From contig JAWMAR010000421.1 in assembly GCA_036785375.1 (NCBI GenBank), forward strand, positions 1,178,001 through 1,242,000: 64,000 nt of DNA, in the 5' to 3' direction. The position numbers were made by a program, and so were the translations under genes. The notes under the pieces were generated by a model. The model ran no database searches. It saw nothing but the letters and a program-made list of their open reading frames with translations, and was not told the DNA's origin. The stretch's first letter is position 1. Every line of letters begins with the position of its first letter. Origin of the DNA: Leucoraja ocellata (taxonomy: Eukaryota). Below, piece by piece: positions 2,216-54,574 of the stretch.

Positions 2216-3769
2216 CATTGCCTTCACAAATATTCAATGCACATCTTTGCCATGACTTGTGCTACTCAGCAAATTGAAGTCAATCTTATGCCAAGTTGTA
2301 AGTAAAAACAGTGGACAGCTGGCAGCATTAATCCTTCCCTAACACTGGTTTGGTGACTTCCCTGATTAATAAGACAGTATTGATCCAACTGATCCACTGA
2401 TTGAACCACGTTCAATATACATTGTCTCAGCAACGGCACAAAACCACTCCCAATGCAATATAAATATGTAAAGGAATGCTCAGTGGCAGGTTTACCTCAA
2501 TGCCGGTTTATTGATATTTAACCAAAAGCATTGAAGAGATTGTTTTAACAATATTAAACATTGTTGTATGATGATGATGAGATTCATTGCTGTATGATGA
2601 TGATGATGCAAGTGATTCCCTTTCTGTGGAAGAAAGGTGGGAGGCAACTTAGGGCTCCCATATCATAAAGAGGAAAATAGGTAACATGGGTTAAAAAGAT
2701 AGCAGGAAGTTCTGTCCAGAAAGGATGCATTCAAAGAATATTAGCATCCACATGCACTTGATTGAGCAGCATTGTGACCAACAGCTAACATTAAGGAGTT
2801 TTAGTGAGTTTCAACATGCCTGAACTTCTGTGCATGTGTGGCAGTCAAGATTATAATAGCCCTTAATTTTCTTACCTCGGACTCAAATGGGGCAACTGCA
2901 ATGCAAATCAGCGACATCTCCCAATTTAGAGCAGATTATTGCATATGGAAGATAGAGGTGCTTTGCTCAAGAACAGAAATGCTCCTTAACAAATTCTTTG
3001 AATAGGAAATTCCTTTAATGCTTCACATAGTCTGCAAATCATGTACACAAAAAAAACACCAGCAAAATTGCATAATTTCTTAATTCTGCCCATATTCATG
3101 CCTATGTGTCAAATCAATGGATGGATCTTGGGCAACAATAACAGTTGCAAAATTCCTGCCTCTGAATTTTAGCCAGAGCCACCCAAAACGAAACACAGGT
3201 CTTTATTTTAGTGCTGAGTATAAATTTCAATACCCAGGCTGATATGGAGTCTTTCCAATAAACTCCCAAGAAACTGTTTCACACTTTGTTGTTGCAATCT
3301 GGTCCTTGGCAAGATGAGATGATCAAGCAAGAAGGTGATAATGAGAGCCCCCCCCCCTGGACTTTCTGTTAGGGCTTAATTAATCACCCAAGGAGCTGAG
3401 CACCATCAATGAAGTTCAGAGTAAGAAGCAATCCATTCTCAGAAGCATCAAGTGATCATCATTCCAGCTGGGTTGACAAGCAACATAAGGCCAATACCAA
3501 TACCAGAAAATCAGTATTTCCAGTAGGAAAGCTTATCAACAACCTGAGGCCTCAACAAAAAAACAAAAACCACAGCAACGTAGAATTAAGGTAAATGTAA
3601 AGTGTAAATGGTATATTAAGGGAAAAGGAATAATCAGGAAAAAAAAATGTAGGGCACATTAGCACCAGCATGAGAAAACATGGGCGAGGAGCCAGAAGGT
3701 ATAGGTGATTTCCTACATAAGTGAATAGCTTTCATTGGTATTCACAAAGGGAATAAACTTTGTAATTGA

Positions 3770-11450: not shown

Positions 11451-12883
11451 ACAGGTCTGGAAATTGTCTGTCCAATGCAGGAATCTGCTGTTGGTCATGT
11501 GAATAACATGAACTACTCAACAAAGGTTACTGAATGTAATTAGGGCCTCAACATTGGGCATTTTGGCTCCTTGAGAGCAATCTGAATCTCATTATTGACA
11601 TTGACGTTTGTCATGTGGTAGCTCCAAGGTTATATCAAGTGGTTCACATTTCCCAGGGCCTTGCCATTATTATTCTCTTTTCATTATTGTTTCTTTCCAT
11701 AGATGCTGCCTGACCTAGAGAAACATTCCCTCAAGTGCTATTTGCTTTAGTAATTTTGCATTCAGTTGCAGAGAGAAAAATATTTTGAAAAGAGTTTCCA
11801 CTAAAAACATTCCTCCAGCTGGTAAATTTGCTGGAGGCCTTCTTAGTTGGGATCAATTTTTAGTATGTGGTGAGGTTAAAATCAAAATCTAGAAAATCTT
11901 ATTTCTACTTTCTGCAGGATTTTACAATCTCCAACACTAATACAGGTTGACAGATTAATCCTCTTTTAGATTATTGAATCTAACTGGTGTACACCTGCAC
12001 ACATATTATGAGGGCACGAAATAGTCTTACAATTTGATTTCCTTGGGGGTAATAATTCTGAGATGTTTTCATGATTTACTTCTTCATAAAAGAAACTTCA
12101 AGATTACCAAAATAAAAAACATTTCCATCGGTTCAATTTGAACCCTATTCAACTTTAATGGGGGTTTAAGATCTAAGTGAAAGCACCACTGTTGATTTCC
12201 TGTACTTTTATGAACCTTACTCCATTAAGATCAATTAAGAATATCAACCTTATTATGTCTATTTTTGTGCTATACAAACCTAGAGTGCCTGTGGCTAGCA
12301 AACACAGATTTAATACTGCTGAGGGACAAAGCTCCAAATAAAACTCAAGGCTTTCACATTTGAATAGAAAAGCCTCTGGCGATGCTTGGGTTATCCCTGC
12401 TATTTTCCTTTTCATAGAAAGCATCTTTTAATGGCCCACCATCACAGAAAGCAACATTTTATTTTGCTTTAAAGGAAATACTACAGCACATCCAAGGTAT
12501 TACACAGTTATTCAGTGTTGTGCAACCTTATACAGGCCGCTCCTGGGTAATAAGTGGGCTCCAATTTTACAGACGTACACAAGTCATTTTTGTCCATAAA
12601 CTGGAAACCTAATTTACCTAAATTTGAAATTTTCAATAACCCCAGAGACATGAACAACATAATATCTTTCCCAAAACTATACATTCAGCAAATGATAATG
12701 ATTTGAATGTGAAGACACCCACATTTCATTTCTAATAAATGATTATTAACCTTTAAAACATTAATTCTGTTTCTCCTTCATATCCACTTTCATATCTCAG
12801 GGACATGGCAAACAAGAATGCTCCTGAAAATGGATGCCAGCATCGCATGTACAATTCACTTGTGCATGTCAACTTATGTTGCT

Positions 12884-13020
12884 TCTTCTTCTTTCTTGTG
12901 GCGTGAACAGCCTAAAGTTGTTGGTCAACTTGTTCTCTTTGATCTTCCGTTTGTGCACGTCGAGTTGATTGCATTAGTCGAAACGGGGCGGACCATGTGA
13001 AGGTTGCAATCTTCCACCCC
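12884..13020 (-). mobile_element. 137-bp SINE/short internally deleted non-LTR element (Ingi/Vingi-like) with HDV-like ribozyme head and (GAA)n tail
   Basis: TSD AACTTATGTTGCT at 12871-12883 and 13021-13033; minus-strand GAA-repeat tail; 5' 54 nt fold into a nested double pseudoknot. The Vingi assignment is inference. Confidence 0.85.
12967..13020 (-). ncRNA. HDV/CPEB3-like self-cleaving ribozyme fold (minimal, no P4 stem)
   Basis: P1 GGGGUGG/CCGCCCC, J1/2 AA, P2 GAUUGCA/UGCAAUC, P3 ACC/GGU, L3 UUCACAU, P1.1 C-G, J4/2 CUAA. Confidence 0.85.
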
Positions 13021-13796
13021 AACTTATGTTGCTGCAGGGACCTCAGAGAGAGATAAGCAAGTGGGACAGATGTTCTTCATCCACAAAAAATACCTCCCAA
13101 ATAGGTATTGAAAAGGCATTTGGGGCAGACAGCTCTATAGGTGAGAGGCAGGAGTAATGGCACAGGTTCTGAATGCAACACTTTTTTTTAAAAATCAATG
13201 ACCTTGCATAAATAGTTAAAGGCTAATAAATGGAATCTCAGATTAATATCCCAAAAAGTGTATCATTGACCATTGAAACTATTCAGCACAACTCAACAGT
13301 CACTCAATATTCATAACTCATACTTAACATTATGTTTTAAGGCATCCTCACATAATTAGTACTGCATCAAGTCTCATACCAATGTCTTACAACTTGCACA
13401 AGATGACTGAACATAGAAAATAGGCTGCATGACATTTACTAACATAATGCTCTCTCTCATCATGAATGAAATGCGTCTAATCGCAGACAGTTTTGTTACT
13501 TGTCCTCATTGGTCAGTACTCATCATACTCTATTATTGAATCAAGATACTAAAACGGCCTTTATAACTGAACAATAAGAGTATTTTTGCATACAGAAGGC
13601 AACAGTGCAATAACACAGTTGATCTTTCACTTCTCAAGGACAATTCAGTTTGGGGGGGGCAGGGGGAAGAAAAAAAAAAAAAGACTTTACTTTCCATGCC
13701 CACATTCTGCACAAGAATGTAACATAAGCAGAGTTAATATAACTGAGGCAAAGTTTGTAGGGTGCCACAATACCCAGCACACTATTCTTCAAATTA

Positions 13797-14370
13797 TTAC
13801 TACAAGGCATTGGTGAGGCCAATTCTGGAGTATGGTGTACAGTTTTGGTCGCCTAATTATAGGAAGGATGTCAACAAAATAAAGAGAGTACAGAGGAGAT
13901 TTACTAGAATGTTGCCTGGGTTTCAGCAACTAAGTTACAGAGAAAGGTTGAACAAGTTAGGTCTTTATTCTTTGGAGCGCAGAAGGTTAAGGGGAGACTT
14001 GATAGAGGTCTTTAAAATGATGAGAGGGATAGACAGAGTTGACGTGGATAAGCTTTTCCCACTGAGAGTAGGGAAGATTCAAACAAGAGGATATGACTTG
14101 AGAATTAAGGGACAGAAGTTTAGGGGTAACACGAGGGGGAACATCTTTACTCAGAGAGTGGTAGCTGTGTGGAATGAGCTTCCAGTGAAGGTGGAGGCAG
14201 GTTCAATTTTATCATTTAAAAATAAATTGGATAGTTATATGGACGGGAAAGGAATGGAGGGTTATGGTCTGAGTGCAGGTGGATGGGACTAGGGGAGAAT
14301 ACGTGTTCGGCACAGACTAGAAGGGCCGAGATGGCCTGTTTCCGTGCTGTAATTGTTATATGGTTATATG
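13797..14370 (+). mobile_element. Young CR1 LINE 3' end
   Basis: ORF 13762..14292: YKALVRPILEYGVQFWSPNYRKD...ERRRLRGDLIEVFK...WNELP; CR1 3' hairpin and tail. Confidence 0.9.
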
Positions 14371-20850: not shown

Positions 20851-21399
20851 AAAGAGTTGAGGGGTGGGGGTCGAGGAAAAGGCGAGGGGGAGTGGATGGC
20901 TAAGTGGCGAGGTGGGTGAGGAAGAGGTAGGACGGGTGGGGAAGAGGCAGTGGGGTGGGTGGGGAACAGGTGAAGGAGGGGAGAAGAGGCATGGGGGTAA
21001 ATTGGGGGGGGGGGGCGAGGATTGAATAGGCGGGGTGGGGGACTGGCACGTGGAGATTGGGCCGAATGGCCTAATTCTACTATAACGTATTTTAAGGCTC
21101 AGAATGACAGATTCTTGATTAGTACGGGTGTCAGCGGTTATGGGGAGAAGGCAGGAGAATGCAGTTGAGAGGGAAAGATAGATCCGCCATGATTGAATGG
21201 TGGAGACTTGATGGGCCGAATGGCCTAATTCTGCTCCTATAACTTATGGAAGAGGGGAGGCAGGGAGCCCACAATGGATAAACTCCAAACGGGGGGATGG
21301 GGGGGATGAGGGGGTCACTGGGCACAGAACCTTGGGGTGGCGCGATGTGTGCCTTCGTGTGTCCTGGGAAAGGAGAGGGTGGAGAGCAGTACCAGGCTA

Positions 21400-21850
21400 A
21401 GGAACTGTCCCGCTGAGTTACTCCAGCATTTTGTGTCTACCAGGTGAAACTTTTGTTGATTAAGGGTGAGGAATGGCCGAGAGGAACCTGGGATGAGGTT
21501 GGACACCGAAGCGTGACAGGCAGCATTTCTGGACAGAATGGGTGACGTTTCAGGGTCGAGATCATTCTACAGGCTGAGAGTCTGGGGAGAGGGAAACTGG
21601 AGATATGGAAGGTACATAGAACATGTAAGATGTGAAAAGAACAGATCGAAGCAGACAGTGATCAAGAGAATGTAGAATGGTTCATTGTTGGATGTGGGGA
21701 AGCTGACAACGAGGCATACAAACAGTAAAATTAATCAGGGCGTTGAAACCAGTCGGAGAACTAGTGTGGATGAGGGCTGGAGAGAGAGGGAAAGCACGGG
21801 TTACTTGAAGTTAGAGACGTCAATATTATTACCGCTGCGTTGTTGGCCGG
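21400..21850 (-). mobile_element. Penelope-like fragment, second copy of the 20060-20400 family
   Basis: Colinear similarity (tgtagaatggttca..., gaaac/tagtcggagaa); degenerate hammerhead at about 21541-21575. Confidence 0.7.
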
Positions 21851-21869
21851 GTTTGGGAAGCTCAAGGTA

Positions 21870-22498
21870 GGGTTTTGTGGGGGGGAAAGGGCAGGAGCCG
21901 GGGTTGTGAGGGAAGAGGGCCGGGGATGGGAGGGGGAGGGTGGGGTAAGGGGGGCGGAGATGGGAGGGGGTGGAGTTCCGGGGTTGGATGAGAACAGAGG
22001 TCGGAGTCGGCAGTGGGGGGGGGGGGGGGAGAGAGGGAAGGGGCTGGTGTCTGAGATGGGCGAGGGGGAAGGGGCCAGGGACGGAGGTGGGGGTTGCGGA
22101 AAGGGGCCTGGGACCGAAGTGGGATGAGGAGATGGGAGTGACGAGAGGGGGAAGAGGAGAGGGGGGCTGAGGAGAGGGGGATGAGGAGAGGCGGATGAGG
22201 AGAGGGAAGTGAGGACAGGGAAGGGGAATGAGGAGAGGGGGGTGAGGAAGGGGGGTGAGGAGAGGGGGATGAGGAGAGCGGGATGGGGAGAGGGGACGGG
22301 GAGAGGGGGACGGGGAGAGGGGGATGAGGAGGGGGATGGGGAGAGGGGGATGAGGAGAGGGGGATGAGGAGGGGGATGGGGAGAGGGGGATGAGGAGGGG
22401 GATGGGGAGAGGGGGATGAGGAGAGGGGGATGGGGAGAGGGGACGGGGAGAGGGGGATGAGGAGGGGGAGAGGGAAGGGGCCGGGGGGGGGGGAGTTG
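21870..22498 (+). repeat. Purine/G-rich low-complexity minisatellite (GGAGAGGGGGATGA-like units)
   Basis: Read directly; source of the spurious Pro/Ser-rich minus-strand ORFs. Confidence 0.9.
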
Positions 22499-22504
22499 GA
22501 ATTA

Positions 22505-33779: not shown

Positions 33780-36700
33780 TTCCCATGCATGTTTTATAAC
33801 CATTCGCCCATGCTTATCAAGAATCTGTTTACTGCCATCTTAAAAATGTTCTAAGACTTTGCTTTTACCACTCTCTGAGGAAGAGAGTTCCAAAACTCAT
33901 GTCTTCAGAAAAATAAATTTAACCACCTGTCCTGAGAAGGTAACCCCTCATTATTAAACCGTAACTGCTGGTTCTAAATTCATATTTAAGAGGATACTAG
34001 ACCAAGGGGGACCCGTGGGTCCCGTCCCCTCAACGCGCGGTTTGCGGGGGGGCCTGCGGCATCACACACACACATACCAACCCCCAAACACACAGGGGGG
34101 GTAGCGGGTAGACGGGGGTAGAGGGAGGGGGAGATGGAGAGGGAGGGAGAGGGGGAGGTGGAGAGAGAGAGAGAGGAGGGAAAGGGGGAGAGAGGAGGGG
34201 AATGGGGGGAGAGGTGGGAAGGGAGGGGGTGTAGGGGAGGGGGGTTGGAGGAGGGGAAGGGGGTTGGAGGAAGGAGAGCGGGGTTGGAGGAGGGGGAGGG
34301 GAGGGAGAGAGAGGAGGGGAGAGGGAAGGGAGAGGGGGAGGGAGAGAGAGAGTAGAGGGGAGGGAGAGGGGAGAGAGGTGGGGGATGGAGAGAGGGGAGA
34401 AGAGGAGGGGATGAGAAGAGGGGAGGAGAGAAGCTATGCGGGGGGCAGTTAAGGGTGGTGGGCGGAGCAGGGTGCTACGACCGGCTGCAGGGCTTTGACG
34501 CCCGTTCTCGTTCTCTGTCTCGGGAAGGGGTAGAGATGGAGGGGGGGGGGGGTAGAGGCAGCAGCTTCGGACTGTGAAAAACAGCAGAGGGCCGGCAGCG
34601 CACTCGCCAGCATGACAGACGATCGGACGAGGAGAGGGAGAGGATTCAAAGCAAGCCGGTAACCTACGGTGACCTTTGGATCTGCAGAACTTGCTCGTTC
34701 TTTCTGCAATAAGGACCGCCGCTGCCATGTTGTTGGACTTCTAGAAGCCCAGCGGAACGCGCTGGACGACTTGATCACGTATTCACGGGCTTCAATCCAC
34801 CTAACTGGCTGCGCATTGAAAAGTCTGTGCAACTGGTTGCGAGGAGTAAAGGCATTGTGACGTCATGCAGTAGTTATATTTTAAACAATTTTAGTAAAAA
34901 AACTCAGGAAATAATTAACCAAATTTTCAGATGAGGAGATTTTTGAGTTCATGCGGTAAATGGCGACCGGAAAATGTAAAAATGTCTCCGTTACCGCATC
35001 GGGTTTTGGAGGAGATGTGACTGACAAGAAACAAACAAACGCACAAAGAGAGTTTTATATAATAATGATATGATGCATTTTTGCAGCTGCCCTTTCAAAA
35101 CCCTTAGGGTCTTGTTTGTTTCCATTCTCCCTCCCTCTTCTCAATTCCAGGATATTAAGGCTCAGCCAGTCCAACCGTTCCTCAGAAGACTTGCCTGTTA
35201 AATAAGGAGAAAATGGTATTCTAAATATTGGCTCAGTGTTGCACTGCATAACAAGTGCAATTTCCCTCTTTTGTAATAAATTCTTGTTCAACAAATGACA
35301 ACAAACGTTCTATTAGCTTTTCAAATTACTCACTATATCATGCACTTGGGATACCAACATCCGTTCTATACAATCTTTCACCATTTAGGCAATAAGCTTT
35401 TTATTTTTTCTGCCAAAATGAAAATCTCAAATTTTCCCACATGATAATCAAGATTTTTGCAATTGGATTAACCTATTATCCCCTCGTAACCACGTCGTCT
35501 CCCCCTCAAATTTACTTTCCCACCTTTCCTTGCGTCATTAACAAATTTAGCATTATACATCTTTACTGTTTATATACATCATAAATGTTGAGGCCCTGCT
35601 ACTGAACCTGGTAGCACATTACCTTGATGCCCAGAAAAATGGTTATTAATGCTTATTTTGGTTTGTATTCGCCTTTCAACTTTCAATTTTATGTCCAGGC
35701 AAATGCACAGTGAGCTTTAATGGTTCCTCATTAACCTTTGATGTGGCACCTTATTAAACAACCTGAAAATCTAGGTAGAGTACATTTCTTTACTTCTTCT
35801 TAGAACTCCAGTATATAGGTCAAACATGATTCCCTGTCTTAAGCCATGATGGCTTTGCCTATTACCTCGATATTTTTTCAAAATACTCTGATGTAACATC
35901 TTTGATTAAAGCTTCTACCATTTTTCCTATGACAAATGTTAACCAAGTTTTCTACGCAATCTATGGTATTTTGTAAAAACCAGCAGGAAGAAGCTGACCA
36001 AGACCTGGAGACTTGTCAGCCTGCAGCTCATTGCTACTAAGTTCTGAAGATTTTAATTTTCTGAGTTACCCTCCCTTTAATTTCTGATTAATGGAGAATA
36101 CATACAGAAAGTGAAAACTGATCTAAATGCCTGTTTCGTTCTTCTGCCATTCATTGTTTTTTATTATTAATTCTCCGTTTCTGCAAGAACAACATCCTAT
36201 TTTCTTTTTTATTCTTTTAAAAATCTACAGAAACTATAATTTTTGGATTTCTGGCTAGCTTCATCTTACACTCTCATTATACTCTAATTTTATTTGTAAT
36301 CTCGTAATTTTAATTTAATTTATATTTCTTTCTCTTTAAGTTTGATCCTACCTTTAACTATTTTGTCAACCACAGACAGTGGTCCTTTCCGTGGAATATT
36401 TTTTTCATATTCTATGCATTCTCATAAATCCTCTTAAACGTTATGACTGATTCTTTGAACTGATTTGCTAGTTCATCTTGAGTAACTCTGCTTTTGTGCC
36501 CTTTTTTAAGTTTAAACTGTTGATCATGGACCCATTTATTTCCCCTTCAGACTGAATGCAAAATGCAAACATTTTATGATTTTTGTCTTCACCATGAGCT
36601 TTAATGAATCCTCATTATACAATATCACGCCTCATATAGCTGCTCTTCAGTTGTCTCCAGAATGCACTGTTTTAAGAAACTATCCCAAACTATTCTGAGT

Positions 36701-54312: not shown

Positions 54313-54572
54313 TGGGTGGGGTGGGGAGGGGGTGTTTGTGGTCGAGGAGAGGGGGAGGGGTGGTGTGTGGCGGGTGCGTGGGGTGGGAGGGGAGCGGCGT
54401 GTGGGTGGGAGGAGGGGTGTGGGAGGGAGGGGGGTGTGCGGTGGAGAGGATGGGGGAGGGGGAGGGAGGATATGGGAGGGGAGAGGGAGGATGTGGGAGG
54501 AGGGAGAAGGGGGTGTGTGGGGGATGGGTGGGTGGGGGAGGGGTGTGTGTGTGGGTGGGAGGGGGGGTGAGG
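54313..54572 (+). repeat. G-rich low-complexity tract in intron 7
   Basis: Read directly; many G3+ runs. Confidence 0.9.
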
Positions 54573-54574
54573 GC

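Follow-up and report, generated by a model that had tools for sequence, protein, structure and literature searches.

A high-copy derivative of a Vingi-type LINE with a predicted P4-less HDV-like ribozyme at its 5' end

The element in the window and its genomic family

The window, as the whole stretch of 64,000 nucleotides analyzed here is called, carries a 137-bp element on its minus strand (Table 1), whose letters from position 13020 downwards agree with the parse made earlier from the sequence alone (the sequence-only reading). As that reading had proposed, the first nucleotide (G1) adjoins a 13-bp target site duplication (TSD), with one base ambiguous because position 12870 carries the same base as 13020. 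The lack of a tRNA head, which it had also claimed, is borne out by ARAGORN, which detected no tRNA in the window. No Vingi-type ORF fragment is present within the window, the ORF lists show no clear host gene near the copy, and the immediate flanks of the copy match none of the other fetched loci. A 181-codon frame at 13747-14292 (+), belonging to a repeat that recurs in other fetched loci, resembles what we take to be the C-terminal part of a CR1/L2-type reverse transcriptase (RT). Purine-rich, low-complexity tandem repeats at 20900-22500, 34115-34433, and 54321-54573 account for the GC and skew peaks of the window.

Table 1. Positions of the element's parts in the window, with nucleotides (nt) counted from G1, and of related LINE heads elsewhere in the genome
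Feature	Position	Strand	Basis or remark
Element, 137 bp	12884..13020	minus	
TSD, 5' copy, 13 bp (14 if G1 is included)	13021..13033	minus	
TSD, 3' copy	12871..12883	minus	
HDV-like head, 54 nt, predicted cleavage 5' of G1 (13020)	12967..13020	minus	Descriptor, shuffles, covariation, per-sequence parsing
Head, P1: nt 1-7/30-36	12967..13020	minus	
Head, P2: nt 10-16/48-54	12967..13020	minus	
Head, P3: nt 17-19/27-29; L3: nt 20-26	12967..13020	minus	
Head, P1.1: one pair, C22-G37	12967..13020	minus	
Head, 6-nt loop where P4 would stand; J4/2: nt 44-47	12967..13020	minus	
A25; family base G25 (metal-binding pair U20.G25, as in HDV)	12996..12996	minus	Copy-level CpG decay
C44, predicted catalytic cytidine at the start of J4/2	12977..12977	minus	Role inferred from HDV
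nt 1-72, from the 5' end of a Vingi-type LINE; 87-90% identity to L142 and L156	12949..13020	minus	
nt 73-92, junction: 8-nt insert, about 7 nt like the next LINE 5' bases, about 5 nt other	12929..12948	minus	By eye
nt 93-137, of LINE 3'-end origin, with the final codons, the stop, a short 3' UTR, and the GAA tail	12884..12928	minus	
CPEB3-like LINE heads, two sister families	L308-L332, e.g. G000:C11:3014330, C28:7289837, C1853:101973		RF00622

The element belongs to a multi-copy family, as the sequence-only reading had supposed. In a genome of 3.44 Gb and 5,847 contigs, a first search gave 1,448 candidates, 40 of which were scored and showed 94-100% identity. The repeats of this genome may resemble those of cartilaginous fish. 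Counts based on exact matches are lower bounds that include duplicated segments: at least 2,454 for a 20-nt body anchor and at least 2,181, in three CpG states, for the 28-nt head of subfamily A. Near-identical sequence also occurs in 20 sequencing runs from 10 studies and seven organisms. From 100 listed places of the body anchor, 90 were fetched, 14 were dropped as flank duplicates, and 76 were kept, although L239, one of those dropped, is an independent insertion after all. The 76 copies fall into subfamilies A (n=55, on average 3.5% from its consensus) and B (n=21, 7.2%), divided at sites picked by eye. Within the head the two consensuses differ at three positions (unpaired nt 8; nt 32, where a U-A pair becomes U.G; and nt 45, the variable base of J4/2), none of which breaks a pair, compared with nine differences downstream of the head, both being small numbers.

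The 5' ends of the copies cluster at G1, as had been predicted. Among 30 loci chosen by their 3' half alone, a set that includes the window copy and some duplicates, alignment begins at nt 1 in 28 and at nt 2 and 3 in the other two. TSDs were found in 62 of the 76 body-anchor copies, ranging from 9 to 20 bp (11-13 bp in 42); 27 adjoin G1 exactly, 23 share 1-3 nt with the G run, nine are separated from it by 1-4 extra nucleotides of mixed identity rather than a single G, and three are outliers. Both kinds of evidence place the element boundary at the predicted cleavage site. Two further loci drew attention: L174-L184 (G000:C1:19.26-19.43 Mb) represent one insertion multiplied in two opposed arrays of 2-3 kb units with 15 heads, and L223:1-399 (subfamily A) and L239:1-399 (subfamily B) occupy the same position in a host repeat and share a TSD core, possibly reflecting a target preference.

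Partner LINE and bipartite origin

A pattern consisting of the element tail preceded by a tryptophan codon retrieved copies with the tail after the end of an ORF, and these were followed by an upstream walk. Each of the 20 LINE loci reached first was 5'-truncated. L142 and L143 are one full-length insertion of about 2.77 kb, present twice and bounded by its own TSD, that carries the element head at its 5' end and the element tail at its 3' end; L156 carries the head as well. Nucleotides 1-72 of the element thus match the 5' end of this LINE (LINE1) and nucleotides 93-137 its 3' end. Among intact proteins the closest one, P0002 (1,019 aa), aligns along L142/L143 with 65% identity over the APE part, and Pfam identifies in it APE and RT domains only, with no RNase H domain. 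A single ORF with APE and RT and no RNase H is how the Vingi clade is described in a passage of PMC13708176, and the partner has this same organization, so that by its predicted architecture it is a Vingi-type LINE; no named Vingi sequence appeared among the 120 matches listed or in PDB.

The sequence-only reading had proposed a SINE mobilized by an Ingi/Vingi-type LINE. The LINE half of this proposal is supported by L142/L143, which share both ends with the element, but the term SINE does not apply in its strict sense, which calls for a head from tRNA, 7SL, 5S, or snRNA: neither the tRNA search nor the Rfam scan supports such an origin, and the head corresponds to the 5' end of the LINE itself. 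Because of this shared head, and with LINE 5' and 3' parts, no ORF, and TSDs, the element is classified from sequence comparison as an internally deleted, non-autonomous, bipartite LINE derivative of the NARTc/R2 SIDE type.

All translated LINE1 copies are broken. Median pairwise identity is 87% for LINE1 (188 pairs), 89.5% for subfamily B, and 94.3% for subfamily A (four poorly aligned rows left out), a gradient by which the LINE1 copies are judged older than both subfamilies. At two sites the tail of subfamily A is nearer to that of LINE4 than to that of LINE1 (L308:3800-3830 compared with element nt 118-137, using one LINE4 tail), and a change of driver LINE for subfamily A, towards the younger LINE4, is possible. 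In five LINE1 copies (L144, L147, L152, L166, and L167) the head is inverted relative to the body, a 5' inversion as from twin priming, and at L125 (oriented 3109-3167) an inverted head fragment adjoins a 5'-truncated LINE1 body.

The HDV-like fold in the family and in sister LINEs

The head was searched for with a descriptor specifying a 7-bp P1 starting from G, a P2 of 5-7 bp, a 3-bp P3, an L3 of the form U-Y-C-N-N-G/A, a G after P1, and C-N-R-A. On both strands of the window, the sole match was this head, and only when A was permitted at position 25; in 200 dinucleotide shuffles of the window the loose descriptor gave 17 matches in total (0.085 per window) and the tight one none, compared with one observed. 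The minus-strand parse of the sequence-only reading (P1 of 7 bp, P2 of 7 bp, P3 of 3 bp, P1.1, and a C in J4/2, within 54 nt) is therefore upheld by letters and descriptor alike, although it had overlooked two departures of the window copy from the family, A25 instead of G25 and C36 instead of U36. The head accommodates the nested double pseudoknot of P1, P2, P3, and P1.1, and it lacks P4: 6 nt lie between G37 and C44, compared with 26-30 nt in the heads of LINE2, LINE4, and LINE5, and P4 is replaced by 6 nt only in LINE1 and its short derivative. The presumptive catalytic C of the C-N-R-A motif is present as C44 in 70 of the 76 copies and also in the parsed heads of LINE1, LINE2, LINE4, and LINE5. 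G25, which forms the U20.G25 pair at the family level, is likewise found in 70 of the 76 copies, and the pair is absent from the window copy. All catalytic positions are kept in both subfamily consensuses and in the LINE1 heads.

Covariance models, proposed earlier as a check, did not recognize the head: Rfam returned no ribozyme family in window positions 12000-14000 at E<=10 and no ribozyme match for L173, L241, L142, or L156 at E<=1. Energy folding with nested structures gave z-scores from -1.09 to 0.82, none significant, pseudoknots lying outside that model. At the level of single copies the strict descriptor is passed by 29 of 76, and individual copies decay neutrally. Judged by the descriptor and the shuffles, the head of the family fits a P4-less HDV-like fold.

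The A at position 25 of the window copy is best understood as copy-level decay. An initial idea that A25 marked an amplified lineage had arisen from the A25-rich top matches of the first genome search, and it was rejected: in the unbiased subfamily A sample position 25 is G in 53 of 55 copies and A in none. Genome-wide, the subfamily A head occurs 1,807 times with G25, 167 times with A25, and 207 times with the mirror change T24, and the near symmetry of the last two (binomial p 0.044) indicates CpG decay with at most a slight deficit of A25. The family master is canonical, with a G1.U36 wobble of a type that occurs in HDV. In antigenomic HDV the U23/A28 combination, equivalent to A25, lowers k2 528-fold according to a passage of PMC3386971, and by analogy the window copy, carrying G25A, is probably a decayed member and a poor ribozyme.

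Further LINE families were found with the APE protein, and 20 loci were fetched. The heads of LINE2 and LINE4 are HDV-like by the descriptor, with different sequence and a real P4; that of LINE3 was missed by the descriptor and looks HDV-like on visual inspection only; and L327 represents a fifth family. L291-L298 and L300-L304 represent two single-ORF APE/RT LINE families, with about 40% and 38% identity to P0001 and with HDV-like heads that include P4; their copies are 93-97% identical, suggesting that these families are fairly young.

In an alignment of 12 heads from three LINE families, P1, P3, and P1.1 are paired in 92% of cells. Covariation was 0.507, compared with 0.214 in shuffled alignments (0 of 500 as high) and at most 0.158 in slid ones, a value in which single changes are counted many times because the 12 rows form three related groups. 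Changes on both sides affect five of 11 pairs, a number not above that of shuffles (211/500). P2 was read sequence by sequence because MAFFT misaligned its 3' strand; in this reading it pairs 7/7 in the short A and B heads and those of LINE1, LINE4, and LINE5, and 6/7 in LINE2. The covariation anticipated by the sequence-only reading is hence seen between LINE families, and not among the copies, which decay neutrally.

A 25-nt degenerate pattern recovered 22 heads in the genome, most of which run on into the LINE4 5' region, while L327 runs on into a related ORF. All 10 heads scanned pass the Rfam model of the mammalian CPEB3 ribozyme (RF00622), with 48.8-64.2 bits against a cut-off of 35; L308-L310 also pass this cut-off, and the window family itself gives no score. 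Along 28 nt, L327 and the Rfam CPEB3 consensus do not differ, even at helix bases that are free to vary, and the pattern had been widened to admit this consensus-like version.

RNA 5' ends, proposed mechanism, and relation to known systems

Raw reads of organism A, which may not be the species of the window, were aligned to the intact copy L173, in which G1 is position 1583. In two single-cell runs of one study, sampled at 1 (X21) and 3 (X22) in 100, 1,595 and 1,379 reads, respectively, have loose ends at L173:1583, among the loose-end positions listed. The consensus of these ends is the reverse complement of a full 30-nt template-switch oligo (agreement 0.71 in X21 and 0.66 in X22), an identity supported by 61 listed papers in which the same 30-nt sequence co-occurs with "template switch"; the oligo-joined share of these reads is estimated at roughly half. 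The three G of the oligo stand in addition to all four G of the element, and the oligo consensus shows no extra cap-type G at G1. A diluted oligo match (19 of 30 letters, counted by hand) appears in X24, a bulk run of a second study, and X23 gives no oligo consensus at G1 (agreement 0.44). Poly(T) loose ends occur at the element tail (L173:1455 and 1458). Since the neighboring host repeat shows the same strand bias, read strand bias was left unused. At L173:1509, reads of organism A show a third variant, nearer to the LINE and without the 8-nt insert.

Taken together, the head of the family very probably works as a ribozyme and thereby defines where the element begins at its 5' end, a role with which a promoter in the head may coexist, although the sequence-only reading had called the family promoterless. 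Under this model, a copy would be read through by host transcription or transcribed from a promoter that lies within the head or close to it. The first 54 nt would form a P4-less double pseudoknot of HDV-like type and cleave the RNA directly 5' of G1; the product would be a unit-length RNA of about 140 nt whose uncapped end is protected. Its 3' tail would then be bound by a Vingi-type APE/RT protein, which would insert the RNA through target-primed reverse transcription and so generate TSDs of about 12 bp. Since cleavage would take place upstream of the catalytic core, every new copy would inherit the whole ribozyme. The structure of the element, its boundaries, its partner LINE, the conserved fold, and the RNA ends at G1 are observed; transcription by read-through or from a local start, cleavage, tail recognition by the Vingi-type protein, and target-primed reverse transcription are the steps we infer.

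An improbable alternative to a working ribozyme is that the head serves mainly as an internal promoter starting at G1, the fold being inherited from the LINE, deprived of P4, and without useful cleavage, perhaps acting as a 5' shield. It draws on the 77-nt head of L1Tc/NARTc, described in a passage of PMC3383444 as a proven internal promoter with its +1 at the cleavage site, and on the failure of Rfam to detect the present head. Template-switch reads, moreover, do not distinguish a start from a cut: a passage of PMC6280765 states that template switching captures capped and uncapped ends alike, so that transcription initiation at G1 would fit them too. However, every catalytic position is conserved in both consensuses and the LINE1 heads, P4-less HDV-like ribozymes are reported to cleave in vitro (passage of PMC10879173), the oligo consensus has no additional cap-derived G, and the extra bases at nine TSD junctions are mixed. 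Somewhat less unlikely, though still improbable, is that the reading of the family is right and the pile-up of reads at G1 is a library artefact, arising from strand invasion by the oligo at the four-G run or from cleavage in reverse-transcription buffer, and hence uninformative about processing in cells. Such invasion is a known artefact where a site matches the 3' end of the oligo (passage of PMC6280765), and the oligo joins at G1 are known only among the loose-end positions listed; yet invasion would lay the three G of the oligo on the G run of the element, whereas the consensus has them as extra bases, and cleavage in the tube would still demonstrate ribozyme activity.

Far less credible than either is an ordinary Pol III SINE whose small-RNA head has degenerated and in which the pseudoknot arose by chance. 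The shortness of the element, its many copies, and its microsatellite tail are SINE-like, and nt 37-45 loosely resemble what we take to be the B box consensus. Against this, ARAGORN reports no tRNA in the window, the tight descriptor has no match in the 200 shuffles, sister LINEs begin with the same fold in different sequences, and the head that the element has in common with its LINE largely refutes this reading.

The closest known counterparts of this ribozyme-headed derivative are NARTc/L1Tc and RIME/ingi (Pr77, L1TcRz), short non-autonomous elements whose 5' head, HDV-like in fold, and short 3' end also occur in an Ingi-clade LINE; in NARTc/L1Tc cleavage occurs just upstream of +1, and in L1Tc the same 77 nt act as promoter and ribozyme (passages of PMC3383444). 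NARTc is a 263-nt trypanosome element with a 77-nt ribozyme that includes P4, whereas the present element has about 137 nt and a 54-nt P4-less head, resides in a 3.44-Gb animal genome, and has a partner type without RNase H. R2 SIDEs of Drosophila similarly combine a 5' ribozyme with a LINE 3' end through internal deletion and are mobilized in trans (passage of PMC3414825), but they are rare and rDNA-specific, while the present family is dispersed in thousands of copies and related to an APE-type LINE. SINE2-1_ACar and deletion derivatives of Vingi-1_EE likewise join 5' and 3' parts of a Vingi LINE (passage of PMC5786205). In the passages found on Vingi elements no ribozyme-headed derivative is mentioned, and the part of PMC5786205 that assigns LINE ribozymes to six clades does not name Vingi among them. 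HDV-like ribozymes have been noted in metazoan LINEs, some SINEs, and lamprey (passages of PMC6765202, PMC8256844, and PMC7761336); no title or abstract opening returned by the literature search concerns this family or a Vingi ribozyme, and older surveys may list vertebrate examples.

The head itself resembles minimal HDV-like and theta ribozymes, which have the same core and no P4. According to passages of PMC10879173, nearly 99% of P4-less HDV-like ribozymes come from phages, many beside tRNAs, and the eukaryotes in that survey are human, mouse, and protists. Theta ribozymes often adjoin the 3' end of a phage tRNA, whereas here the motif heads a eukaryotic retrotransposon with no tRNA in the window. 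The present family would thereby carry the P4-less HDV-like ribozyme from phages to a high-copy genomic element, and extend ribozyme-processed retrotransposons to the Vingi type in a genome of vertebrate size; at such copy numbers, many host transcripts may contain a self-cleaving site. Vingi elements are under development for gene insertion (passage of PMC13708176), which gives the nature of their 5' end practical weight.

A last comparison concerns the CPEB3 ribozyme, which has the same seven-base L3 loop and single P1.1 pair as the consensus of the element family, but retains P4 and occupies a single intronic locus, whereas the element family is P4-less. LINE4 and LINE5 heads exceed the cut-off of the CPEB3 model, although this ribozyme is said to be absent outside mammals (PMC8233481). 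A Vingi trace in the human genome (passage of PMC5753468) indicates that the clade was present in mammalian ancestors, and on sequence likeness LINE4/LINE5 may be a candidate donor lineage. The likeness may also reflect convergence on a constrained core, but in LINE1-3 the helix bases concerned are seen to be free to change. The broadest scenario, which we advance tentatively and with the balance somewhat against it, is that all Vingi-type LINEs of this vertebrate lineage are headed by HDV-like ribozymes, that in one family the ribozyme was reduced to 54 nt, active and P4-less, and multiplied to thousands of copies, and that a stranded 5' head of the LINE4/LINE5 lineage became the mammalian CPEB3 ribozyme. 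The LINE4/LINE5 match offers a testable donor and outgroup for that ribozyme.
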